Part shown: positions 3,758 through 54,974 of the stretch, piece by piece
Position numbering within the stretch: position 1 is the stretch's first letter
How the letters are laid out: every line of letters starts with the position of its first letter
Source: a virus
Taxonomy: Duplodnaviria > Caudoviricetes
Virus record (IMG/VR): IMGVR_UViG_3300031578_000031
Span: 1-59,613 of that record
Reading direction: 5' to 3' (one strand)
Length of the DNA: 59,613 nucleotides
Program-made: the position numbers and the translations under genes
Notes under the pieces: generated by a model
What the model saw: the letters and a program-made list of their open reading frames with translations, nothing else
Told to the model about the DNA's origin: nothing
Database searches by the model: none

Positions 3758-4045
3758 ATGATTATGAGTGGTATAGGTTTGGTAGTAAGGGATATTCGTA
3801 AGTTGCGTAAGTTGACTCAGGCTGAGTTGGCTGTACGTTGTGGGGTATCGAGTTCTTATGTATCTACGATTGAGGTGGGTCGTCAGTTGCCGACTTTGAC
3901 GGTTATGGAGAAGTTGGCTGATGGTTTAGCTGTTCCGTTGCCTATATTATCTTTTTTATCTTTGGATGCCGAGCTTATTCCGGTTGATAAGCAGATGTTG
4001 TTTGCTTATGTACGGAAGGAGGTTGAGGGGATATTTTTGAAATAA
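3758..4045 (+). CDS. XRE-family HTH regulator
   Basis: IRKLRKLTQAELAVRCGVSSSYVSTIEVGRQLPT is a canonical HTH_3 pattern. Confidence 0.9.
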   Translation: MIMSGIGLVVRDIRKLRKLTQAELAVRCGVSSSYVSTIEVGRQLPTLTVMEKLADGLAVPLPILSFLSLDAELIPVDKQMLFAYVRKEVEGIFLK

Positions 4046-5211: not shown

Positions 5212-5895
5212 ATGAAGTATTTTATGAATGAGAATACGCAAATGTTTCAGTATTTCACTGAGCTAATGGGTAAATTCTTAAAAGAGGTATTTAGTAGATG
5301 CGATGTACAACATGGCTTTGATGGAGAGGATCTTGCCGAGTATATGTACAACCATTTTTTAATGGAAAATCCGGTATATGGAGACGATTATTATTTCTTT
5401 CCAATAGACGATTATTTTAACAAAGTGGTAGTTCCGCATAAGATTGAAGTTTTCTTAGCAGGATATGCAATGATTCCAATGATAGAGGAATATAGTAAAG
5501 TTTTTAGAGTTGACAGCAATGAATTTATCAAGCAATTACTTGTACATGATTTGTCGAAGTTTTCTATAAATGAAATTGCATACGCTTTTTATAACTTTAA
5601 GGATAAGTCTAAAAATCCTGAATCTAATCGCATTGCTTTTGAATTAGCTTGGAATCATCATAAGCACATGAATCCACATCATCCGGAGCATTGGCTTGGA
5701 TTTGGAAGGGCAGGTGTGTTGGAGAGTGAATTTGATATGCCCTATAAGTATGTCCTTGAAATGGTAGCGGATTGGATTGGTGCAGGTGAAATTTATGGAA
5801 GCAGCCTGGACGAGTGGCTGCCCAAGAATAGAGGAACTTTTAATTTCAGTTTAGAAACATCTGTTAGGTTGGACATAATCTTAAATGCGATATAA
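5212..5895 (+). CDS. HD-fold metal-dependent phosphohydrolase (DUF5662-like)
   Basis: HDLSKFS...AWNHHKHMNPHHPEHW...EMVADWIGA motifs. Confidence 0.7.
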   Translation: MKYFMNENTQMFQYFTELMGKFLKEVFSRCDVQHGFDGEDLAEYMYNHFLMENPVYGDDYYFFPIDDYFNKVVVPHKIEVFLAGYAMIPMIEEYSKVFRVDSNEFIKQLLVHDLSKFSINEIAYAFYNFKDKSKNPESNRIAFELAWNHHKHMNPHHPEHWLGFGRAGVLESEFDMPYKYVLEMVADWIGAGEIYGSSLDEWLPKNRGTFNFSLETSVRLDIILNAI

Positions 5896-6462: not shown

Positions 6463-6936
6463 ATGAAAAATCTTGTATTGTTTTTATTGCTAAGTATCGC
6501 TACGGTTTGCCAAGGGCAGCAGGTGGATACGGTACTGGTGTATGGTCAAACGAAGATGCGTATTATTGTGGCCGGGGATACGGTGATGATGTCTATCCGT
6601 CAGTTTGATGGCATTCGGAATGTGTTCAAGAGCTTTGAGGTCAGTGATTCTTTGAATAAGGATCAGATTGCAAGATTGAAAGAGATTATTGAGACCTCGG
6701 AAGAAATTGAGGAGAAGTATAAGAAGATGGATGAAGTTCGGGAGGCTCAATTGAATCTATACAAGCGAGAGTATAATACGCTTCAGGAGATTGCTGCTAA
6801 TCAGAATCAGAGGCTATTGGATATTAGTGATAGTATTTTCAGAAAGAATAAATCAGGTATGTGGCAGGGGATAGCTATTGGTGCCGGAGTTGGTGCTTTC
6901 TTGACAAGTTTTGTTTTCATCTTAATAAGTAAGTGA
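6463..6936 (+). CDS. Secreted or membrane-anchored coiled-coil protein
   Basis: N-terminal signal peptide, central coiled coil, C-terminal TM helix (GIAIGAGVGAFLTSFVFIL). Confidence 0.65.
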   Translation: MKNLVLFLLLSIATVCQGQQVDTVLVYGQTKMRIIVAGDTVMMSIRQFDGIRNVFKSFEVSDSLNKDQIARLKEIIETSEEIEEKYKKMDEVREAQLNLYKREYNTLQEIAANQNQRLLDISDSIFRKNKSGMWQGIAIGAGVGAFLTSFVFILISK

Positions 6937-28592: not shown

Positions 28593-30289
28593 ATGTAGGC
28601 ACAAATCAAGGAGTAGCGTATAGTGGACAGGAAGGGAAGGGTAAAGCCTTTATCCTTCCTGAAGGCGATGATTCTATGTTAGCTTTTCAGCAATTATTGA
28701 AAGGTGATGCGGAGAATAAAGATGCTATTAAGAAAGAGAAGTTAGACGCTGCAAAAAAAGAGAAGGAAACAAAGGCAAAGCTAAAGGAAGAGGTTCCGGA
28801 TTGGTGGCTTCGCCATGATACAGAGATGCAGGGGCTAACGGATAAGGTTCTTGAACTTGGGGCCGGACTAATGGCTGCCGGAGTTGAAGATCCTATGGCC
28901 GGGACTGACCCTGGTTCTGCTTTATTCAAAAAAGAGTTGAATCGCTTAAAGTCTTTGGGTGGCTTGTCGAAACAATACAAGGGGCAATTTGAAGAAGACA
29001 GAAAGGTAATATTGGCGGATAAGGACAACCATTTTACTGAGGAGTCCAAGGATGCCTTGGTAAAATTCTATGACGAAAAAACCTTAGCTGAACGCCTTGT
29101 GAATGGTGACTTGCCTCCTCGTTTATTGGTAAAAGAACCTGAGTTCAAGAGGGCCGAGTACAACGGAAAGTTGGCTGAGGCGATGGGCAAAGAAAATAAG
29201 GAGCCTACTGTTGAGAACTTTAAGAACATGGTCAAGATGGCCATGAATGACCCATCTGCTAAAGGGTATCAGGATAATTTATTTACCGATATAACCAACT
29301 TAGAGAATGACAATCCGGATGCTTTTCTTGCATTGGAAGAAGAAGCCAAGCTCAATAACATGACCCCAATGGAAATGCTTGGAACGAAGCATCTCCAATC
29401 ATATTTCGATGTAGAGCCTGTTGACATAACTGCTACAATAGAGAAGTTCATGCCGGCAGTAGATACTAATAAATGGTCTAATGAAGATAAAGATAACATT
29501 ACTGAGTTTGGAGAAACACAAAAATTAGACCCTGTAAAGCTGACTAAGGCTGCTACGGCATATCTTGACTTTAATCCTAAAGCCCTTACACAGCTTACTA
29601 ATAGCGGATTAGCAAAAGACAAAGCTTCTGCTGTCAAGTATATTGAAGAGTTAATGAAGGCGAGGTCAAAGGAGCTGACAAGTTCCGGAGTTAGACGAGA
29701 AGGCGATGGCTATGAAGGGACGGGGTATGGTGAGGATGATATTAAGAAAGCTGCTGATGAGTGGTTTAAATATCTATCCGGTGGTGGAGAAGGTACTGCT
29801 GCTGAGAAATTCAAAGCGCAGAAAAAAGCTGCAGAGTTCTTACGGGGGATCAAAGGAATTGAAGGAGAAACTTTTCAATGGGGTAGAACTTATTCTGCTG
29901 CTGCTTATGGTATCCCTGGTGTTACTACGGAGTACGGCAGTGAGGATGATTACAATCCTGATAAGATTGCATTTGGAGTATTAAGAGAGAAAAAAGTAAA
30001 AACGCCAATGGATGATGGGTCTGAAGTTACTGAAACAGTAATGGAAGATGATGTAATGGACTTTCAATTTACGGATCCAACGAAGAAAAATTATCTTAAT
30101 TTTGACGCAGCATTACCTTACTTCGTTAAAGCTGTTAAAAATCAAGGTCGATTGTTTGAGCCTGATTTAGGAAGAGGGCCTGATGAAACGGAAGCAGAGC
30201 GTGAAGCGACTAAGAAAGAAATAAGTGGGGGTGGATTGAAAAGCAAAACAAAAGAACAAAGAGAATCTAAAGCAGGAGCATTAGATTAA
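28586..30289 (+). CDS. Putative ejection/cargo protein
   Basis: Highly charged helical 567-aa protein preceding the giant gene. Confidence 0.55.
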   Translation: MVNVGTNQGVAYSGQEGKGKAFILPEGDDSMLAFQQLLKGDAENKDAIKKEKLDAAKKEKETKAKLKEEVPDWWLRHDTEMQGLTDKVLELGAGLMAAGVEDPMAGTDPGSALFKKELNRLKSLGGLSKQYKGQFEEDRKVILADKDNHFTEESKDALVKFYDEKTLAERLVNGDLPPRLLVKEPEFKRAEYNGKLAEAMGKENKEPTVENFKNMVKMAMNDPSAKGYQDNLFTDITNLENDNPDAFLALEEEAKLNNMTPMEMLGTKHLQSYFDVEPVDITATIEKFMPAVDTNKWSNEDKDNITEFGETQKLDPVKLTKAATAYLDFNPKALTQLTNSGLAKDKASAVKYIEELMKARSKELTSSGVRREGDGYEGTGYGEDDIKKAADEWFKYLSGGGEGTAAEKFKAQKKAAEFLRGIKGIEGETFQWGRTYSAAAYGIPGVTTEYGSEDDYNPDKIAFGVLREKKVKTPMDDGSEVTETVMEDDVMDFQFTDPTKKNYLNFDAALPYFVKAVKNQGRLFEPDLGRGPDETEAEREATKKEISGGGLKSKTKEQRESKAGALD

Positions 30290-30300
30290 ATATAAAAATT

Positions 30301-33300
30301 ATGCCTGGTACACCAAAGGAAGAAAGAAAGAAAATGTATGACCTGCTCAAATCTGAGAAGGAATACGATGGAGACTCTTTTGAAGATTTTGAAGCTGATT
30401 TCGGTACAGCCGAAGGTCAAAAAATGTTATTTGACCATGTTTCTAAAAAGGGGCTTTATACTAAAAAGTATGAGGATTTTGTTGGCAAATATTATGCTGA
30501 CGTAAACCAAGAGCAAGTTACCGAAAAAAAAAAGGAACAAAAAGCTGCAATCCAAGAAGAGGTTGGTGGCGGTTGGTTCGATGTTGGCTTGCCCGAAGAA
30601 TCTACCCCGAAGGATTCTCCGAAGCCGGCTACAATACTAATGGACCCGAAAAAGGCCGCAGCTCAAATTGTAAACAGTAACGAGAAAATAAATTCTGAAA
30701 GTCTTAATGAATTGTCAAAGCGCATGGGTGCAGCATTTGGCACGAATGAGGTATGGGATAATAATGTAAAAAATGCTGAGAAAAAGCTAAATACGGAGCT
30801 ATCTGTTTTAGAGGAAAGAAAGGCTGCTGGCGACATTAAGGATGAAGCTATCTATAAAAAACTTGTAGAAAAATCTCAAAAAAAGCACGATAACACCGTA
30901 AAGGTTGCACAAGATGCGAAGCTATATGAAAGAAAATTGTCGAATGAAGGGATTGCTCCTCCGACTTATTTAGCATTAGAAACATTGAAAACCATGCAGC
31001 CGGAAGAGGAATGGGTAGATAAGCCCATTTCTGATAAATTATTTCATCAAATAGATGAAATGTCGAAGAAAGATGGTTCTTACCTATCACTTGATTTGCC
31101 TGAAAGAGCTGACCCAAGCATGATGATAATTCCTTTCTCAAGGAGTGCTCCACTTGCTGATAATGTAGATAAAGTATTAGATGCAGAGGGATTTACGGGA
31201 ACAGAACGTTCCGCTATGCGATTACATCTACTACAAAGACTGGTTAATCAGCCAAGAATTGATAAAATAGAAACGAAATTAGCAAAATCCCTAAAGAAAT
31301 TAGGAATGCCCTCTCCTGCGGAGTTTGAGAAAGAGGCTTCTATTATTCAAGACATTCAGAATAATGTAAATAATCAAGTTGTTAAGTATCGTGCCAATTG
31401 GGAGAACCAAGGGAAGGTGCTTGACGATGCCTTTAAAGTGAAAAGTGACTCTTATAAAGAACAGAAAACATTAGAACTTGAAGGACTTGTTGCTGCCTAT
31501 CAAACTGCATTTGAAAAAGGAGAAGTAAGTGATAAGGTTGCAAACGAAGCAATTAAGAAGAAACAGGAAGAGATAAATGCTGAGTTCAAGACTATGTATG
31601 ATGATTACATAGTCAAGCGTAGTGCAATTCAAGAGCAAAGTGCAGTAGAATATGGTAATATTCATAAGCTAAATGAAGAGTCAGTAGCGAAAATAGCCAA
31701 ATTCAAAGAAAAGTATAAGCTGGTGGACGGTAAGTTCTCTGAAGAATACAAAGAAAAATACCAAGCGGTTGTCGAAAGTGTATGGGAAGAGCAAGATTTG
31801 ATTGACAAATCGGCTCAAGCAGATGCTTGGAATAAAATGAATTACCTGCAAAAATTTGAGACATCCTTACAAGGTGGATTTATGAATTTGGCAGAGATGG
31901 GATTTGGCGGATGGAAGTATTTCGCACCTGGTGCGGAAATGCCGGATATTGGATTGATTGATATTGATATTGCCCGTAAAAATGCACCGGCACCTGATCT
32001 TGGTGATTTTAATTTACATCACCTATATAGCCCTGATTGGTGGGTAAAGAATTTAGGAGAGCAGCTTCCTATTATGTTACCCCTAATGGGTACAGGTGGA
32101 GCTGTAATGAAAGGAGTTACATTAGGATTAGGCACAAAAGGGGCTACGAGTGCCCTTTCAAATGTGCTTGGAAAGTATGGACAACTAACTTTACAGACTC
32201 GCCAAGCGATTGGGTCTGTTTTTGGTGGTGGTGCATCAAGGTACATTGAGTCTTACATGGAAGGGTCATTGACGTTTACAGAATCTCTAAAAGATGGTAA
32301 GAGTTGGGAGGAATCAATGAAAAACTTCCAAACTGTTCGAGATTCTAATCTTATGTTAATGGGACTGGATGCTATGCAGATGTATATGACTTTTGCAAAA
32401 GGGCCTAAGATAATGGCATCTAAAGCTCCTTATTCCGGCATTCCAAAGGGCTTGAAAAACGCATATTCCTTTGGGGGAAAAATGGGCATTATGATTTTCT
32501 CCGAAGGAAAAGAGGAGCAACTTCAAGAGTGGTTCCAAGCAAGGGTAAACAATCCTTACTTATCCTTTGGTGCATTCGCTAATTCTGAAGCAGGTAAAGA
32601 AGTGTTTTGGGTAGGTGGTATGATGGGCGTAGGGACCTCAGCAATGTTTGGTGGATTCCGTGACCGTTCTGCTATCGGTATGATAAATAAACAGGTCCAA
32701 AGCTATTATAGCATGATGGACTCAGGAGATGTTTCACTGGATGAAGTAGAGAATAGGCTCCACCAATTAGGAAGTACGATTGAAACATTAAAAGCTCAAG
32801 GCGTTCTTTCTGACAAAGAAATCGGGAATGCCCAAGAAATACTTGCACATAGTGGGCGTATGTTCAATCAAGTATATAATGGCATTTTACCATTTGAGTA
32901 TGATAGTCCTCAGTTCAACGAATATTCAGCCCTTACATGGGAGCATGAACAATTAAGAAAAAAAGCGGAACAGTACGATAAAGCTGTCCCTAATGAAGAT
33001 ACAGCAGTAGAGAAGGAGTTGATAAAATCTCAACAAGAGAATATCAATGACCGGATAATGGAAATAGTATCAGACCCTAAAGCAAGTAGCTATGGGGTAG
33101 ATGATATGCCATTGACAAAAACGGAGTTTGAGTCACTTGTATTTGATCCTGCAAACAGAGAAGCCTTAGACCAAGGTAGGCTTACTACTAATGACCCTGA
33201 AATATTAGCCAGGATGAGGTCAGAAGGCATTAAGGAAGAAATGTTCCTTGGCAATGCTGAGAATGTTATGACGGAATTAACCGGCAGCACTGACTTTTCT

Positions 33301-36300: not shown

Positions 36301-39300
36301 GGACTATCGGCAGAGGCCTTGGAAGAGATTGAGGATATTTTGGAGCAGGATGTCAAGCTTGAAAAAATCAAGAAGGGCGTTACAGAAAAAGCTTCCGAAA
36401 TAGAGATTGAGCTATCTGAAGATGTAACGCCGGCCAAGGTCGAAGAATTGGCTGAGGAGAACGATAAGCTTCTTGATGAGGCTATCCTCCCTACGGAGCT
36501 AAATGATGCGCTGATAGACCAATTAAGCCAAGGTGGATTGATTAGTATTGATGATGCCCATTATGCTAAAAAGCATTTAAAAGAGCCTAATGAAATTACG
36601 CAAGATTTCTATGACTTAGCTTTATCCAAGTTACCTGAATTTGCCGAAAAACAAAAAACTTCTAAAAAAGCTAAAGCAGAAAGAGCTAAAGCAGAGAAAG
36701 TCACTGGGAAGAAAAAAACAAAACCTACTGAAGAGAAGGCTGAAAAACCAAAAAATGCCAAAGAGAAAAACACTCAACTGGATAAAAAACTCGACATAGC
36801 TAAAACTAAGTTGCAGGATTTGTTGGATAAACTAAAAAATAACGATAAGAGCCAAAAATCAGGTGGGCCTACTATTGGAGAGGTACGTATGGCTGCAATG
36901 ACTTATGGTGCGCTTTATGCTGATAAAATAGCTGAGATTCATGCAGATAATCCGGAAAAGATAAACAAGGCAAATTGGAGACAAGGCATGATTGATACTT
37001 TTGGAGATATTATTAGTCCTTATTTGGATATGATTTTGGGAATGACTACACCTCCATCTGTCCATAATGACACTCCTATCCTATCTGACCATATAGCGAA
37101 TCTCAGGAAGATTGCCAAGGGCAAAGAGGTTGTTATCAATACAGAAACACCTGCTCCGGAAGGAAAGCAGGGCAAGCCAAAGGTAGATGAACGAGTAGGT
37201 AATGAGAGACCTCCTATAACTTATGTGAATTATGAAAAGCTACCAAGCTCAGTAGATGAGTTTATTCCGGAGTCTCGATATGGCACCGAATTAGACAAAC
37301 ATCAACGATTTGCTGTTAATATGGCTTTGACCAATTTCCTATCCAATGGCAAGCGTGGATTCTTATTGTTAGATAGTATGGGAGTTGGTAAGACTCGTCA
37401 AATTATAGCCACTGCTATCGAATATGCGAAACGGACCGGTAAAAAGGTTGTTATCGTAACTCAAAATCAACAAATAATTGATACGGCATTCATGCCGGAT
37501 GCCTTGGCTATGGGGATAGATTTAAGTAAGGAAAACGTTGAGCTTATTACCTATACCCAATTAGAAAAAGCTTCTAAGAATCAGTATGGGCTGGTAATCT
37601 ATGATGAATCCCAAAACTTGAAAAATCCAAGCAAAAGATTTGAAGCAAGTGGAGCAATAGTTAGTACCCATGTCATGTATTCTACGGCTACGCCTGGTGA
37701 TAATATAGGTAATGCTATATATTTCCTATCAGACCTACTTGGTATTTCAAGGGAAGAAATGATGGGGGAATTAGGTATTACTAAAACAAAGGAAGGAACT
37801 TGGGAGCTTCGTGCTAACAAGTCGGAGCTGGATGCCATTACTGCTATCAATGATTACATTCAAAAGAGCTTTGAGGATGGGCAGATTATTCGTAGAGAGT
37901 ACCCTTATTGGGGTACTATTGGAGAAGACATTATACCAATTGACTCTGATCAAGAATTAGAAATTGAAGGAATCAATGCTGCTTATGATGAACAGATAGA
38001 CAAAACGAGACCTAACCAAACATTCTATGATGGCAAAACCGGCCAAATGAAAAACTCCGGTAAAGGTAGGAGAGGTTGGGATAATCGGTATAAAGGCTTA
38101 TCGGATGATGCTGCTAATGTATTGGATGATGACATCATCCGTTCATTGAGGGAGCAAAAAATCAATATGCTTGACAAGCTTGTAGAGACATACAAAGTTA
38201 AAGCTGCTGTTTTGCGTATCAAGGCCAACCTGGCCGAAGGAAAAGCAGTAGTCGTTACATCTCAAAATGTGAACGAGCTAAATATTAAAGGATTAAATGG
38301 CGACATGACTACAACGGAGAAACGCCAATCTTTCCTACAAGAATTAGCAAAAGCCTTAGACAAGGCTGGTATCCCTTATGTAGAAATAAATGCAAAAACT
38401 GACAAGTCAAAAGCAGTTGAGGATTTTCAATCAGGGAAAGTAAATGTAGTAATAGGCTCCATGCAATCTATGTCCACTGGCATTAACTTAGATGATGTTA
38501 CCGGAGACAAGCCAAGGGTATTGTATGTTGCTTCTGCTTCATACGATGCTAATGCATTCAATCAGGTGCAAGGAAGAATTTCTCGTAGGAATACAAAAAC
38601 ACCTGCTGAGACAAATATTCTATATGGCAATACTGCTTCGGAAACAACCAAAAGAGGCAAGGTAGAAAGAAAGACAGGCGTACTTGGAGTATTCCAAGGA
38701 GCCGGATTAGATGCGGATAGTGCCAAGGAAATCGAAGAAAACGATAAATTACGTAAAGGTAAAGCCTTGGATCGCAAAAAACCTTATATCGAAACTTTTG
38801 AGGTAAAGGGGTCTATTGTATCCGGAGGCTTCATCCTGGTAAAGGATTCATTCGACATTAAAAACCTTCTCAAAAATATTGGGGCAAAACCTCATACTAA
38901 ATGGGAGAAACAATCCGATGGTACGAATAAAAAGGTATTCCAAGGGTGGGAGTTCCCAATCAGTCGTAAGGCTGAGATAGAGGAGTTGGTTGAGAAGTAT
39001 AATGCAGGGGAGTTGGATATAAATTATGCCCGAAATTCTAAGGCTAATTTTCAATTTTCTACGATGGCCGGCACAAATGCCAACCGTCAAGTGAATGCTA
39101 CTGCTCCAAAAGGAGGTACTGGCACTGCTCCTCGAATAGACGTATCTGTTATTACCGGTAAAAAGCCAAAACCTATTCGAGAGATTATTGGGGACGTTAG
39201 AAGAGCTTTTACTGTTTACATGAAGTATGGCAAATATCAACCTGGCAGCCGTGCTGCCGGTTCATATCAGGCAGTAAATTCTGCTATCCATGCAGCAACA

Positions 39301-49943: not shown

Positions 49944-50972
49944 ATGATCATAAAAGTAAAACACAGAGAATCCCCATACGTCACTATTGATAAGGGGCCT
50001 ATCAACCGAAAAGAACTATCTTACAGAGCGAAGGGAATACTCGCTTACCTCCTATCCAAGCCGGAAGATTGGCAGGTGAAGGAGCAAGATATAGTAAATC
50101 ATGGTACAGAAGGGCGAGATGCTATCCGTACAGCGATAAAAGAGCTTATTGCTTGCGGATATATGGTCAAGGAGCAAGGAAGGTCTGAGAAGGGCCTTTT
50201 TGACGAAGTTGACTATTTAGTATCAGACCATCCGTTTACTGGAAATCCGTCGACGGATAATCCGTCGACGGATAATCCACTGCATACTAATATAGAGTGT
50301 ACTAATAAAGAATTAAATAAAGAAAAGGAAATATCGGAAAATCTCACAGAATCCGATCAACTAAAATCCCAACTCGCTAAATGCTATTACCCTCGATTGA
50401 ATTACTTCGATATGAGTGACGCAAAAGAGAAATTGGAGCTTTTCTTAACTGAGCCTGAAAATGTAAAGTATTGCAGAGATATGGCTAAAAGCAAAAAAGA
50501 TGATGCTGCCATAGTTGCTTATGTCAACACCTTTGTTGCTTTATCCTACGATACAAAGTACATAAAGCACATACAAAGCTTTCCTCAATTGCTAAATCGC
50601 TTCATTGAGTGGTTAAGCAGAGACCGGCCAAAGACTACCTCGGCACCTGAAGCTAAATTAGAGGATAGACGTATTGCATTTGTTTCTGCCTTAGAAAACT
50701 CAAAGGTAGATCAGGAGCTTATTGATAAATTCAATACCCTTGACCTTGATGATTTTGCTAAAAGCTTATTGTTGAGAATAGAGAAATCGAAAATCCTATC
50801 TAAGATGGGTAAATTAGAGCTGGATGATATTATCCGTCTCGGATTCAAATACGGGATGTTTTATACCCGAAAGAATTGGCTATATGAGCTACTGACCAAG
50901 ATTGAGAGTGAGGCTTGGCTTCAGAATTACAATAAATTATTTGATGCAATTGAAAAAGCAAACAAACAATGA
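49944..50972 (+). CDS. Phage replication initiator (N-terminal HTH, lambda O/DnaD-like organisation)
   Basis: ELSYRAKGILAYLLSKPEDWQV...GRDAIRTAIKELIACGY. Internal repeats. Directly upstream of dnaB. Confidence 0.85.
   Translation: MIIKVKHRESPYVTIDKGPINRKELSYRAKGILAYLLSKPEDWQVKEQDIVNHGTEGRDAIRTAIKELIACGYMVKEQGRSEKGLFDEVDYLVSDHPFTGNPSTDNPSTDNPLHTNIECTNKELNKEKEISENLTESDQLKSQLAKCYYPRLNYFDMSDAKEKLELFLTEPENVKYCRDMAKSKKDDAAIVAYVNTFVALSYDTKYIKHIQSFPQLLNRFIEWLSRDRPKTTSAPEAKLEDRRIAFVSALENSKVDQELIDKFNTLDLDDFAKSLLLRIEKSKILSKMGKLELDDIIRLGFKYGMFYTRKNWLYELLTKIESEAWLQNYNKLFDAIEKANKQ
50230..50330. repeat. Putative replication origin: tandem palindromic iterons plus AT-rich tract
   Basis: AATCCGTCGACGGAT twice (50244-50273), each containing the perfect palindrome ATCCGTCGACGGAT, with degenerate flanking copies and an A-rich run after. 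Confidence 0.7.
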
Positions 50973-52591
50973 GTATTAACCACAGAGAGATATTAGACCT
51001 CGTAAATGAGGTTATGGCTTGGAATAAGTCACTGGGCATGAAAGAGTCCTTGGCCATGCAAGATGTGTTGAATAAGGGGATAAAGGCCATCATCCGCAAG
51101 GGGACAATCGGGAAAGAAGCTTTATCGGAGTTCCTTTTCCAAAAAAAACCTCCACATAACCTTGAAACTGAAGGTTCTCTTATCGGCAAGGTGTTACTAT
51201 TTCCTGGAAAGACAATGCCATCATGCAACATCATTACCACTGATTTTTTCTACGACTTGAGGCATAGCTTGATATGGGAAACCATTCGTTACTTGTGGGA
51301 CGGCCAAAAAAAGGTTACAATGGATTCCGTTGTAACACACCTTACAAGCATGGGTAAGTTAGATGCTACATTATCCAAAACTTATATCGAAGCATTGGCC
51401 AAGGACCAATCAACGGTAGCAGACTTTGAAGATAGAGTAGCGGAACTGACATCATTCTATCAGCTCAGAGGGATATGGAGAGTTGCAGCCGAAGCTGTAC
51501 AAAACTCTTACTCTATCCTACCGGAAGAAGCGGAAGCGTTTCGACACAAAGTGATAGAGCAGATTACTGAGTTCGGCCAATCTCAGGTTAAAAAGTATGA
51601 TGATGGGGCCTCCCTTGCTGTAAAGCTACGGGCCTTGAAAGACAAAAAGGAATTAGCCCTTGCAATGGGGGGCTATTCAGGGAGTCATTCTCCGGTATTG
51701 GAATTGGATGCTATTACGGATGGATGGCAAGATACGGATGTGATTGTAATTGCAGGTAGGCCGGGCATGGGTAAAACTGCCCTCGCCATATCGGATGTAG
51801 CTATTGCTTTAAAAAACAATGAGCCGGTACTATTCTTTTCCCTCGAAATGTCTGCGGTACAATTAGCTGCCAGGTTATTCTCAGTAATGGAAGGATATAG
51901 TCTGAAAGACTTATTTGCAAAAGCTCCTCAGCAAATGAGTCCAACGGAAGCTGAGGTTGAGCAATTCAAAAATCTAAAAAGTTTAGCTCAAGCAGCCTAC
52001 GATAAGTTTGAGCTAAAATTGGCAACTATGCCAATCTTTATAGACGATACCCCAGGCGTAAATTGGAGATACATCCAAGACAAGGCCATGTACTTCAAAC
52101 AGAAGTACGGCATTCGCCGAATCTATGTCGATTATCTTCAGCTAATGTCAGGTATTGACCCTCGTGTTACTAATTCCGAACAGGTGATAAGTGAAAATAG
52201 TAGAGGGCTAAAGATTGTGGCTAAGACTTGTGGTTGCCCATTGTTTGAGCTATCCCAACTATCTCGTTCTTGTGAGAATAGACCGGATAAAAGGCCAAAT
52301 CTATCCGATTTGAGGTCGTCCGGAGCTATCGAGCAAGATGCAGACATCGTAATATTTACTTATCGAGATGAATATTACGGAATCTTGGCAGGGGATAATG
52401 GTGAGTCCCTTGAAGGAGTGGGTGAGTTGATTATTGCAAAGCATCGAAATGGGCCACTTGGAACAGTCAAGGCGTTTTTCAATGCGCCATACACCAAATG
52501 GAATAACCTTCACTCTATGCCGGCAGGATATACTTCCGGATTGAAGCCAAAAGAGGAAGATCCTGATTTTAATGTAAATATGCCTTTCTAA
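50969..52591 (+). CDS. dnaB: Replicative DNA helicase DnaB
   Basis: PPHNLETE, IAGRPGMGKT, FFSLEMS, VDYLQLM, LSQLSR, DLRSSGAIEQDAD, IIAKHRNGP. Confidence 0.97.
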   Translation: MSINHREILDLVNEVMAWNKSLGMKESLAMQDVLNKGIKAIIRKGTIGKEALSEFLFQKKPPHNLETEGSLIGKVLLFPGKTMPSCNIITTDFFYDLRHSLIWETIRYLWDGQKKVTMDSVVTHLTSMGKLDATLSKTYIEALAKDQSTVADFEDRVAELTSFYQLRGIWRVAAEAVQNSYSILPEEAEAFRHKVIEQITEFGQSQVKKYDDGASLAVKLRALKDKKELALAMGGYSGSHSPVLELDAITDGWQDTDVIVIAGRPGMGKTALAISDVAIALKNNEPVLFFSLEMSAVQLAARLFSVMEGYSLKDLFAKAPQQMSPTEAEVEQFKNLKSLAQAAYDKFELKLATMPIFIDDTPGVNWRYIQDKAMYFKQKYGIRRIYVDYLQLMSGIDPRVTNSEQVISENSRGLKIVAKTCGCPLFELSQLSRSCENRPDKRPNLSDLRSSGAIEQDADIVIFTYRDEYYGILAGDNGESLEGVGELIIAKHRNGPLGTVKAFFNAPYTKWNNLHSMPAGYTSGLKPKEEDPDFNVNMPF

Positions 52592-52599
52592 CTTTCTAA

Positions 52600-52722
52600 A
52601 ACATAATAGTATAAGGTTTCGTTGCGACCTTGAAACAGCAACTAACTTAATTAAAAGACAGAAATTATGAGTAAAGAAAACAGTAACCAAAAAGGCAAAA
52701 GCAATGAACTTTATACAGTGTT
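52600..52722. repeat. attC-like imperfect inverted repeat 1
   Basis: AAC-AT-AAT-AGTATAAGGTTTCGTTGC ... GCAATGAACTTTATACA-GT-GTT; 123 bp from AAC to GTT. Confidence 0.6.
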
Positions 52723-52879
52723 ACCTACCGTTATTGACGATGTAGTTAAAAGACTATCACAAATACAGATTGACTTTATGAAAACAACAATGCAAGCAAA
52801 AGACTTTAATGAAATATCTGGACAAATTACTGACCTAAAAGAATACCTTATAAACTCTGATTCTTATAATGGTAGGTAA
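52667..52879 (+). CDS. Small cassette-like hypothetical protein
   Basis: 70 aa. Starts inside attC-like site 1 and stops at the TAAC of site 2. Confidence 0.6.
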   Translation: MSKENSNQKGKSNELYTVLPTVIDDVVKRLSQIQIDFMKTTMQAKDFNEISGQITDLKEYLINSDSYNGR

Positions 52880-53001
52880 CGTTTGATTATAAAAAATCGG
52901 TGGGGAATTTGAAGCACCCACCTATCAAATTGAAATAATGTTTAACCTAAGCAGATGGGCTAAAAATTGCACCTTAACCCCACTGTTTTTTATAATGTGT
53001 T
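52878..53001. repeat. attC-like imperfect inverted repeat 2
   Basis: AAC-GT-TTG-ATTATAAAAAA-T-CGGTGGGG ... CCCCACTG-TTTTTTATAAT-GT-GTT; 124 bp, with an unpaired T. Confidence 0.7.
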
Positions 53002-53018
53002 AGGGTGCGTTTTATTTT

Positions 53019-53240
53019 ATGATAGTAGAAATAACAAAAGACAGCAGTAAATACGGTGTTAGATTCCCATTAGTAGGTGAATTTTATAAAGCAAAGCCTT
53101 ATAGATATGATTCTGAAAAAGTAACCTTACTTTACAAGGTTGACTCAAAAACTCACGAAAAAAGCAAAGACCAATATTGGGATGAACCTATGTACAATGA
53201 ATACAGATACAATTTAAGGGTTGTTTCAAATGCCCTATAA
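53019..53240 (+). CDS. Small cassette-like hypothetical protein
   Basis: 73 aa. Starts 18 nt after the GTT of site 2 and stops in TAAC. Confidence 0.65.
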   Translation: MIVEITKDSSKYGVRFPLVGEFYKAKPYRYDSEKVTLLYKVDSKTHEKSKDQYWDEPMYNEYRYNLRVVSNAL

Positions 53241-53368
53241 CACATTTATAAACGCATTGCGCATATATATTTAATTAGGCTGTATATGCGTAATAAAACC
53301 CACAATAATGATAGAAGTAGTAAAAGCTTACCAATATCGGGCGGTGGAATGAATAAAAACAGAGCAAA

Positions 53369-53737
53369 ATGAAAAAATGTAGATATATCAAAGACCCAAT
53401 AGCAGGAAAAGTCTTAATACCGGAGTGCATGAGCGTTGTTATTTCAAATGACATAGATGATTGTATATGCCAAAAATCACCCGAAGTGCCAATAGATATG
53501 CCCAAGTCCCTAACGGCAGAGAATGGGGCTAAAGCATTGTTAATGGGTGAGTTTTTTGAAACAATTGAGGTATTAAATAAAGCCTATTGTGGTTGTGGAA
53601 AATGTGACCACTGCTATGATTTTCCGGAAGAACCGGAAATGATTACTCAGAAGGTGCCCGTTAGTTGGACCACTATAAAAGCGATTTACGCTAAAATTGT
53701 ATCACACTTTAACGACCAAAACAATGGCATACGATAA
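53369..53737 (+). CDS. Hypothetical Cys-rich protein
   Basis: CGCGKCDHC cluster; PVSWTTIKAIY. Confidence 0.65.
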   Translation: MKKCRYIKDPIAGKVLIPECMSVVISNDIDDCICQKSPEVPIDMPKSLTAENGAKALLMGEFFETIEVLNKAYCGCGKCDHCYDFPEEPEMITQKVPVSWTTIKAIYAKIVSHFNDQNNGIR

Positions 53738-54974
53738 AAAAGACTTTGAAAGAGTAGGAGACCTCGCTGACATCGTTCAGGAAATAGGCTCCCGAATAGA
53801 ATTAAAAAAAGTAGGTAGCAATTACCAAGGATGCTGCCCATTCCATAGCGAGAAAACACCATCCTTCACAGTATCCCCTACCAAGAAGATATGGAAGTGC
53901 TTTGGATGTGGAGAGTCCGGAGATGTAATCGCTTTTGTAGCAAAACATGAATCCATATCCCAAGTAGCGGCCATGCGTAAGTTGGCCGGTAGCTACGGGA
54001 TAGAAGTATCCTCAAACCACAAAGAGGAAGAAGGTGGTGCTACGGATAAACAGGAGGCATATACTGCACTAAAGATAGCTCAGATTGTATTTGAGTCTGC
54101 CCTACTACATAATGTGGCAGCCAAGCGGTATATCGTGTCAAGGGGCATCAGCAACATTGACATCGTAAAAACTTGGGGAATTGGATACGCTGCCTCAGAT
54201 TACCGTGTCGAAGCATCTGAGATAGGGATGAATCTATCAGGCTTGAAAAAAGATGGTAGGTGGTTCTTCCGGAACCGGATCATGTTTCCAATTGAAGACA
54301 TTTCAGGAAGAGTTATCGGATTTGGTGGACGTAGAGAGGAAGGTGGAAAGTCAAAGGCTAAATACATTAACAGCCAAGAAACTCCACTTTACAATAAGAG
54401 TAGTGTCCTATATGGCATCCGACAAGCATTGCCACATATCCGTAAAACAAAAACCGTCATCATCACTGAAGGCTACTTTGATGTTATTATGCTACATCAA
54501 GTGCCTGGACTCAACAAGGCAGTAGCTCCCTGCGGTACAGCACTAACAGTTAGTCAAGCTGCAATTCTCGCAAAGTATGCCAACACTGCTGTCATTATGT
54601 TCGATGGGGATGCTGCCGGACTAAAGGCTACGGCTAATGCCATTGAGTCACTTATTCAGGCAGGATTCAAGGACATTGAAATTACCTTATTCCCTGATGG
54701 ATGTGATGCTGCGGATATGGCAGTTGATTCAGGATTCGACCTGAGTACATTCATCGACAATGTAAAGCAGATCTCCGCAATTGATTTTCTACTGGATAAG
54801 ATAGTAGGGGATAGCGAAGAGAAGTGTAAGGTGTTACTTGACATAATTTCCAAATGCCCATCCCCTCTTCGTAGAGATGATTATATCCGCATTATTGCGG
54901 AGAATACTACATATTCCCAAAACTCTTTAACTGAGGAATTAAATATTATCCTCAAACGAAGGGCTTATTCATAA
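53724..54974 (+). CDS. dnaG: DNA primase DnaG
   Basis: CHC2 zinc finger CPFHSEKTPSF...CFGC, RIMFPI, KYINS, and TOPRIM motifs ITEGYFDV and FDGDAAG. ATG at 53724. Confidence 0.97.
   Translation: MAYDKKDFERVGDLADIVQEIGSRIELKKVGSNYQGCCPFHSEKTPSFTVSPTKKIWKCFGCGESGDVIAFVAKHESISQVAAMRKLAGSYGIEVSSNHKEEEGGATDKQEAYTALKIAQIVFESALLHNVAAKRYIVSRGISNIDIVKTWGIGYAASDYRVEASEIGMNLSGLKKDGRWFFRNRIMFPIEDISGRVIGFGGRREEGGKSKAKYINSQETPLYNKSSVLYGIRQALPHIRKTKTVIITEGYFDVIMLHQVPGLNKAVAPCGTALTVSQAAILAKYANTAVIMFDGDAAGLKATANAIESLIQAGFKDIEITLFPDGCDAADMAVDSGFDLSTFIDNVKQISAIDFLLDKIVGDSEEKCKVLLDIISKCPSPLRRDDYIRIIAENTTYSQNSLTEELNIILKRRAYS

Follow-up and report, generated by a model that had tools for sequence, protein, structure and literature searches.

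What are the two imperfect inverted repeats in the interval from a dnaB-type helicase gene to a dnaG-type primase gene of the virus record IMGVR_UViG_3300031578_000031, and do the small open reading frames (ORFs) behind them belong to them? The record (Duplodnaviria; Caudoviricetes) is 59,613 bases long and approximately 89% complete, and every long gene lies on the + strand; the whole of this stretch is referred to here as the window. An initial annotation of the sequence had read the interval, which contains the repeats E1 and E2 and the small genes ORF1 and ORF2, as an integron-like array in a phage that has no recombinase and depends on an outside enzyme. In bacteria, the textbook device for capturing genes is the integron, whose defining component is the IntI integrase. 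Our results support the core of this reading through the membership of E1 and E2 in a site family, covariation within that family, recombinase-headed arrays in host chromosomes, and the reordering of cassettes in related phages. They do not support assignment to the classical integron type, as the recombinase at the head of the host arrays falls below the IntI cut-off and has no integron insert. We consider it probable that positions 52592-53260 comprise two mobile gene cassettes and that these belong to an integron-like system found in Flavobacteriaceae and in their phages. Their cassette nature is well supported, and what we say on the chemistry of recombination, on the involvement of a host enzyme and on the roles of the genes is inference.

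A structured site family with two members in the window

A covariance model of the site family, designated R1, was built from 31 sequences from other genomes and contained no sequence of the window, which was then searched with it on both strands with filters off. R1 matched E1 at 52592-52730 (89.5 bits, E value of 1.6e-17) and E2 at 52870-53009 (38.4 bits, E value of 3.6e-6), both on the + strand and over the full length of the model, with all 19 model pairs formed in E2. The next-best hit anywhere in the 59,613 bases scored 15.6 bits (E value of 0.42). Because a model without window sequence matches both elements, E1 and E2 are members of one structured family. The initial annotation had seen two elements of the same geometry and had proposed a check with an attC covariance model; our own model, R1, returned two and only two significant hits. 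On re-reading the sequence, its coordinates proved exact for the repeats, for the terminal triplets (AAC at 52600-52602 and GTT at 52720-52722 in E1, AAC at 52878-52880 and GTT at 52999-53001 in E2, and a further AAC at 53239-53241) and for the stop codons within TAAC (52877-52879 for ORF1 and 53238-53240 for ORF2). When the interval was searched with blastn, Tenacibaculum phage PTm1 matched exactly 52600-52723 (73%) with unannotated DNA, and the Cellulophaga phages phi13:2 and phi19:3 matched the right 90 nucleotides (nt) of E1 (88%).

As inverted repeats, both of which had been annotated as such, the two elements are of unequal quality. E2 is strong, with an 11-nt perfect arm and a 14-nt arm at 86%, and its fold as single-stranded DNA (ssDNA) has a z score of -2.3 relative to shuffled sequences. 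E1 alone gives no significant fold (z score of +0.5). A scan of the window for a plain geometry of AAC, stem and GTT gave 18 hits, compared to a mean of 19 in shuffled sequences (stem of at least 11); geometry alone is not better than chance. Judged by the match to R1, family membership is what makes both sites real. The motif TTATANNGTGTTA has 2 hits in the window, compared to 1.6 expected, and is uninformative alone. Rfam had no match at the gathering threshold in the whole window and only noise around the sites at E values up to 10.

The third, left half-site of the initial annotation (53239) has an arm that resembles the left arms of the sites by eye, as had been noticed, but it lacks a right partner and is not matched by R1 at E values up to 10. 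It is at best a decayed half; the stretch from 53239 to 53262 is possibly a decayed third site or the original target. A 21-codon ORF at 52939-53004, which is probably not a gene, lies entirely within E2, in its loop and right arm, and terminates in the GTGTTAG of that site.

A site of the family is approximately 123 nt long and consists of AAC, an unpaired spacer of 5 to 6 nt, a 16-bp stem with a variable loop, a spacer of 2 to 3 nt, and GTT. A single structure, in which AAC pairs with GTT in addition to the 16-bp stem, was tested on an alignment of 31 members that left out the window and comprised 18 sequences of a Formosa chromosome and 13 of phage or viral contigs. In this alignment, 98.1% of the cells pair, and 10 of the 16 stem pairs change on both sides in a compensatory manner. 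The observed pairing was reached in none of 500 shuffles, and slid controls paired at 33 to 47%. Two stem positions are occupied by G.T in 31 and 30 of the 31 members, respectively; both of these G.T pairs are kept in E1 and one is kept in E2. The full hairpin can be formed only by the strand written as +, since the other strand acquires C.A mismatches at the G.T positions.

Pattern scans of IMG/VR identified 16 distinct full phage copies, which are 121 to 126 nt long, mostly 123 nt, despite divergent interiors. Across the conserved right arm, the members use two different reading frames, and the PTm1 copy is without a start codon; the constraint therefore acts on the nucleotides and not on a peptide. 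A conserved N-terminal peptide that serves as a targeting signal was considered and ruled out, as identical nucleotides are read in two frames. Site length ranges from approximately 60 nt (Formosa sp. A9, L177, positions ~3805-3868, with an 11-nt loop) to approximately 210 nt (IMG/VR contig L006, positions 5588-5796 and 6710-6910). The variation in length sits in the loop, as it does in the variable terminal structure of attC sites. The cultured Cellulophaga phages phi13:2 (L001, 1768-4522) and phi19:3 (L002, 2754-4254) harbor five and three co-oriented R1 sites, respectively, set among runs of small hypothetical genes, and are possible laboratory models for the system.

The mobile unit and the complementarity of its ends

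Two IMG/VR contigs, L006 and L007, have in common a 341-bp unit at 100% identity whose immediate flanks are unrelated. Its first triplet is the AAC of an E1-type site, and it extends to the TAAC that ends the next ORF. There are seven common blocks at 98 to 100% identity between the contigs, in the order 1-2-3-4-5-6-7 in one and 1-2-5-3-6-4-7 in the other; each contig has extra unique blocks, and abutting common blocks overlap by 13 to 33 nt at the site junctions. For a second cassette, three contexts unrelated to one another were found (the L012 group, L085, and L157); on either side, similarity stops at AAC. In recent events such as these, the travelling unit is the site together with the gene that follows it on the strand of the site. 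The initial annotation had implied a cassette composed of an ORF and the site after it, and the breakpoints in the relatives contradict this, as the site moves with the ORF downstream. Since this is the unit, there is no puzzle in ORF1 starting inside its site. A search for the cassettes in other orders and contexts had also been proposed. Such occurrences were found for the relatives of the E1 family, which break at AAC; as for the genes of the window, only ORF2 was found in other contexts, at 62 to 69% identity. In contigs from four metagenome runs, depth rises approximately three-fold over E1 and E2 and the contigs break there; E1- and E2-like copies run into other sequence at ~52608, 52723-52732, 52883-52892, and 53012.

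The loop of E1 holds the start codon of ORF1 and 18 codons, in agreement with the annotation that ORF1 takes its N terminus from inside the site; residues 1-18 are encoded in E1. Residues 1-23 alone match phrog_23798, and the resemblance of ORF1 to gp030 of phi13:2 and gp029 of phi19:3 lies mainly in the site-encoded part. Neither ORF1 nor ORF2 has a Pfam family above the cut-off, their PHROG matches are N-terminal only, and a protein atlas look-up returned only unnamed clusters for both, which for ORF2 consist of small phage proteins. A homologue of ORF2 is found in L227, a metagenome contig of uncertain origin, in a four-site array behind a different upstream site, and the repeats at the ends of this cassette are near-perfect (9/12 ungapped). 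In L225 and L226 a site follows the homologue, and the viral copy in L224 has no site.

The orientation of genes relative to sites differs between hosts and phages. In Formosa, the longest ORF is antisense to the site in 15 of 17 cassette bodies, whereas in twelve viral or metagenomic arrays it shares the strand of the site in 54 of 58 bodies, 25 of these ORFs starting inside the site (the ORF2 body of the window was delimited for this count by the supplied half-site). Phage cassettes are reversed relative to those of the hosts, with the site 5' of the gene and on the same strand. When host arrays are read on the other strand, they follow the integron rule of gene first, then site.

The ends of the cassettes were examined by comparing the first 12 bases behind GTT with the 12 that precede the next AAC, the latter taken as their reverse complement. 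This was done for 68 bodies from 13 arrays, leaving out L007, which duplicates the cassettes of L006, pairs of sites more than 3000 or less than 40 nt apart, and sites with triplets not located within 3 nt. Complementarity between the ends of the same body had a mean of 7.18/12, with 34 of 68 bodies at 8 or more. An across-site control gave a mean of 4.10/12, with 2 of 86 at 8 or more, and shuffled partners gave a mean of 4.11 and a maximum of 4.99 in 1000 shuffles. The insertion of a site into a palindromic target was also considered and was ruled out by the across-site control. For the first unit of the window, cassette A, the annotated complementarity of 52720-52734 with 52866-52880 was confirmed at 14 of 15 positions, and the sole mismatch is a G.T (11/12 in the 12-base test). 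The second unit, cassette B, had been described as partly complementary, and its ends match at 7/12 ungapped. In the arrays compared, many of the mismatches lie at the eighth base after GTT, which is often G with T as its partner ahead of the next AAC (52727 with 52873 in the window); this represents a recurrent G.T of the outer box on the + strand, the same strand as that of the two invariant G.T pairs of the inner stem.

The sequences of both cassettes were also folded in silico as circle junctions, with DNA parameters and 100 mononucleotide shuffles. The circle-junction form of cassette A has a folding energy of -17.0 kcal/mol and a z score of -3.0, compared to +0.5 in the array form. For cassette B, the values are -18.8 kcal/mol and -3.6, compared to -1.9 in the array form.

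Host arrays, the head recombinase and alternative explanations

In a scan of one genome per species, the right-arm pattern was found in Flavobacteriales only (6/6 hits). The chromosome of Formosa sp. A9 harbors at least 22 co-oriented sites over 38 kb (1,645,204-1,683,666) by a structure-based scan. Approximately 1.3 kb beyond the GTT end of this array, on the opposite strand, lies the gene for a 390-amino-acid (aa) tyrosine recombinase, which is the best match of that genome to the integron-integrase model. It scores 209 bits against TIGR02249, below the cut-off of 265, and leaves model positions 180-238 unmatched. Its match to NF040815, an archaeal XerA/integron model, is about as good (215 bits), and it resembles XerA, XerC-like, and IntI4 chains in the PDB. 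On the basis of these matches, the protein is predicted to be an Xer/IntI-like tyrosine recombinase without the integron-specific insert.

The association is not confined to one genome. Of 121 genomes sampled from the family to which Formosa sp. A9 belongs, 108 have R1 matches (the count per genome being capped in this search), and five further genomes of the family that were searched more fully have 25 to 95 R1 matches each. In these five genomes, 7 of 8 recombinase homologues (E values up to 1e-30) are situated 0.9 to 9.4 kb from an array end, at the same end of the array and always on the strand opposite to the sites. For the eighth, probably an ordinary Xer, the nearest listed site is 84 kb away. 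An Xer/IntI-like recombinase is thus present at an array head in 6 of the 6 genomes of the host family examined. It seems that an integron-like system for gene exchange is common to phages and hosts, and, to judge from the sequences, this system is not a classical integron. An Rfam search of the Formosa array stretch at E values up to 10 gave only noise and no family.

Some further observations concern these arrays. Part of the Formosa array is present twice (L221 and L222; 1,645,204-1,648,276 and 1,668,159-1,669,491); the sites and outer boxes of the two copies are near-identical, pointing to the duplication of a segment that held several cassettes. In L178 (Aestuariibaculum) and L179 (Flavobacterium), a site and at least 400 nt downstream look identical by eye in the stretch compared. 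The two genomes are labelled as different genera, and this may reflect recent transfer or contamination. The phi19:3 protein gp036, a tyrosine recombinase encoded just after the array of that phage, was considered as a candidate and rejected, being unrelated to the host array recombinase (BLASTP E value of 0.22; XerD match of only 27.6 bits).

We propose the following mechanism. A cassette consists of a site of ~123 nt and then a small ORF, and ends with (T)AAC, whose AAC is the first triplet of the next site. The bases after GTT are complementary to the bases before the next AAC, so that an excised circle would rebuild one long hairpin composed of an outer box of ~15 bp, AAC/GTT, and the inner stem. 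The sites may fold as single strands in vivo, with a predicted crossover at AA/C (that is, G/TT on the other strand) and circular cassettes as putative intermediates. The search for PF00589 (tyrosine recombinase/integrase) was empty in the window, the record being ~89% complete, which bears out the annotation that no integrase is present. Because the phage has no such recombinase, exchange would need the Xer/IntI-like enzyme of the host during infection. The loop of E1 would supply a leader, the start codon, and 18 codons to ORF1. This raises the possibility, which we put forward tentatively, that phages of the Flavobacteriaceae type trade reversed cassettes with one another and with host arrays through a borrowed Xer-like recombinase, and that the site doubles as an expression leader that may donate a start codon and a leader peptide. 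If true, a gene ready for expression would be placed in the replication operon by one recombination event. Should phage DNA be a substrate of the host enzyme, phages would have a route to gain, lose, and reorder small early genes and to exchange them with host defence or immunity arrays, with a recombination site that also serves as a translation leader.

Other explanations of the sites have to be weighed. They might be regulatory leaders (promoter, 5' untranslated region [UTR] hairpin, and start codon) of small early genes, shuffled by homologous recombination between repeats, as has been proposed for the promoter-stem-loop cassettes of T4-type phages; a site-specific recombinase would then be superfluous. 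The predominance of ORFs on the strand of the site in viral bodies (54/58, 25 of them starting inside it), the A-rich leader and ATG kept in the loops of the E1 subgroup, and the fact that the G.T pairs would be G.U in mRNA all fit this explanation. However, Formosa has 15 of 17 bodies in antisense to the site and still retains the G.T pairs, conservation of the right arm extends over two reading frames, and the breakpoints coincide with the AAC triplet, beyond which the sequences are unrelated. Leaders also give no role to the complementarity of the cassette ends or to the recombinase at the array heads. We regard leaders alone as an unlikely explanation, although a leader role in phages may co-exist with recombination. 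The sites would be true attC sites, in the form of attC clusters lacking an integrase (CALINs), if they were handled by the classical IntI integrase of some host. They have in common with attC the AAC and GTT ends, two paired boxes with an unpaired spacer, a length in the attC range, and outer boxes specific to the cassette. The outer boxes nevertheless depart from the consensus of attC sites, RYYYAAC/GTTRRRY, being CTAAAAC/GTTACCT in E1 and AGGTAAC/GTTAGGG in E2, and the array-head recombinase, without the IntI-specific region, remains below the cut-off (209 versus 265 bits). R1 finds 8 sites in Polaribacter phage P12002L (E values up to 0.001), four of them just upstream of four methyltransferase genes, and this phage carries a CALIN of which one site was recombined by IntI1 (Qi et al. 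2023, PMC9892861). On the other hand, earlier surveys of Bacteroidetes found only In0, and IntegronFinder 2.0 reported a single complete integron, in Salinibacter (PMC9024848). Altogether, handling by a classical IntI appears quite unlikely.

Miniature inverted-repeat transposable elements (MITEs), or other transposase-driven repeats that sit between genes, would account for conserved terminal inverted repeats, a fixed length of ~123 nt, and many copies per genome. No target-site duplication was seen, however, and the flanks of a site are unrelated to each other (across-site mean of 4.1/12). The moving units include the adjacent gene, all sites of an array have one orientation, a tyrosine recombinase stands at the array head, and the window has no match to the Y1 transposase family (PF01797). 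This origin is very improbable. That E1 and E2 are chance inverted repeats in AT-rich intergenic DNA would agree with the geometry scan and with the insignificant fold of E1, but is refuted by the R1 matches to both, made with a model free of window sequence, and by the 73 to 88% identity to elements of cultured phages.

Several points weigh against the reading of the interval as two mobile cassettes. The R1 E values are rough, as calibration was short; the array-form fold of E1 is no better than that of shuffled sequences; and the ends of cassette B match poorly. The homologues of ORF2 indicate that gene and site part company over long times. As the sites lie on the sense strand upstream of the phage genes, their conservation could be due in part to a leader role at the RNA level. 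For the window cassettes, neither a recombination event nor a circle or deletion form was seen, and the contigs of the four metagenome runs had no joints; being contigs only, these data are blind to rare excision products and count neither way. Searches with DnaB peptide patterns found no close relative of the phage in IMG/VR or the JGI metagenomes; relatives in the DnaB alignment reach only 30 to 44% identity in the best segment, and further DnaB homologues at 46 to 63% identity are known as proteins only. A recombinase of the host type was found in 0 of 10 array-bearing phage records, 7 of which are at least 90% complete, and this empty search shows little; phages free of the enzyme fit action in trans but also passive inheritance.

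Comparison with known systems and layout of the interval

Sedentary chromosomal integrons have long co-oriented arrays with uniform, species-typical attC sites of ~120 nt. The present system resembles them in having nothing fixed but AAC and GTT, in rebuilding the outer box from the start of the cassette itself, and in that the strand opposite to the genes carries the better hairpin in the host arrays. It differs in its recombinase, whose gene has the same orientation as the cassettes and which is without the integron insert, and in outer boxes that do not keep RYYYAAC/GTTRRRY. The promoter-stem-loop cassettes and morons of T4-type phages are thought to move by homologous or illegitimate recombination. 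They too are small accessory genes with their own upstream signal, shuffled among related phages, but have no host-chromosome arrays, link to a recombinase, or complementarity of their own ends.

Virulent phages carry CALINs, including Polaribacter phage P12002L with two methyltransferase genes, and the one P12002L site recombined by IntI1 was recombined from the bottom strand only (Qi et al. 2023, PMC9892861). On the minus strand of P12002L (L309), R1 sites of 61 to 73 nt are present at 30001-30063, 30902-30962, 32216-32288, and 38872-38943, each directly upstream of an annotated DNA methyltransferase gene and on the strand of the gene. These methyltransferase genes, of an anti-restriction type, look like cassettes in a cultured phage. 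The likeness to CALINs lies in cassette-like phage genes bounded by hairpin sites with AAC and GTT ends, in the absence of a phage integrase, and in an example from a Flavobacteriaceae host (PMC9892861). However, the published work uses classical attC models and IntI1 (PMC9892861), whereas the present family is tied to a non-IntI recombinase; the genes here face the other way, and one starts inside its site. The classical integron layout, with the gene before the site and the opposite strand folding, does not apply to the window, whose genes follow the site on the same strand.

The rAID-1 elements of gut Bacteroidales have an XerD-family recombinase at the 5' head of co-directional genes; their intergenic repeats were called "reminiscent of integrons" by the authors, and the arrays are stores of immunity genes (Ross et al., bioRxiv 10.1101/471110). 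They were defined by a recombinase at least 44% identical to that of B. fragilis, followed by two or more co-directional low-GC genes (bioRxiv 10.1101/471110). Compared by description only, both systems belong to the same phylum and have a tyrosine recombinase that heads co-directional arrays with repeats. The rAID-1 arrays differ in being chromosomal, and the passages of the preprint consulted (bioRxiv 10.1101/471110) contain no phage copies, hairpin model, or cassette boundaries. Our literature search found no paper on the present site family or its Flavobacteriaceae recombinase, which is no proof that none exists. The integron cassette grammar (folds between AAC and GTT, outer boxes specific to the cassette, and headed arrays) is here combined with an enzyme that is Xer-like and simpler. 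It occurs in a bacterial family in which published surveys recorded hardly any integrons (PMC9024848), and in virulent-type phages without the enzyme.

Table 1. Features of the interval from the dnaB-type to the dnaG-type gene in the window
Feature	Position	Strand	Basis
dnaB-type replicative helicase gene, left flank of array	50969..52591	+	Pfam DnaB_C 1.2e-72, DnaB 1.5e-14
Site E1, hairpin element resembling a recombination site	52592..52730; core AAC to GTT 52600-52722 (123 nt)	+	R1, 89.5 bits
Cassette A, E1 plus ORF1 body, AAC at both ends	52600..52880	+	Boundary rule taken from relatives
ORF1, 70 aa, no assigned function	52667..52879	+	Residues 1-18 encoded within E1
Site E2, divergent member of the hairpin family of E1	52870..53009; core 52878-53001 (124 nt)	+	R1, 38.4 bits
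Cassette B, E2 plus ORF2	52878..53241	+	ORF2 homologue in array L227 behind a different site
ORF2, 73 aa, no assigned function	53019..53240	+	Seven homologues, 50-91% identity
Left half-site (AAC, 5 nt, TATAA-type arm, TTGCG)	53239..53262	+	Read by eye from the sequence
Local 12-bp hairpin right after the half-site, 92% complementary	53256..53294	no strand	Fold not above shuffles
ORF3, 122 aa, right neighbour of array	53369..53737	+	phrog_24654, 7.1e-11, residues 1-36
dnaG-type primase gene, right flank	53697..54974	+	Pfam Zn_ribbon_DnaG, DNAG_N, Toprim

A scan of the window for promoters and terminators gave 3 promoter-like and 0 terminator-like sites, not above shuffled sequences. ORF3 is not bounded by sites detectable with R1. 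Its match to phrog_24654 is limited to the first 36 residues (53369-53476), and its start is another N-terminal module common to otherwise different small proteins; GTTGTTA is found at 53434-53440. Within dnaB, contig depth rises 3- to 7-fold over 40 bases (52327-52366) in the four metagenome runs, with unrelated flanks. This stretch is a short segment common to the helicase genes of other organisms.

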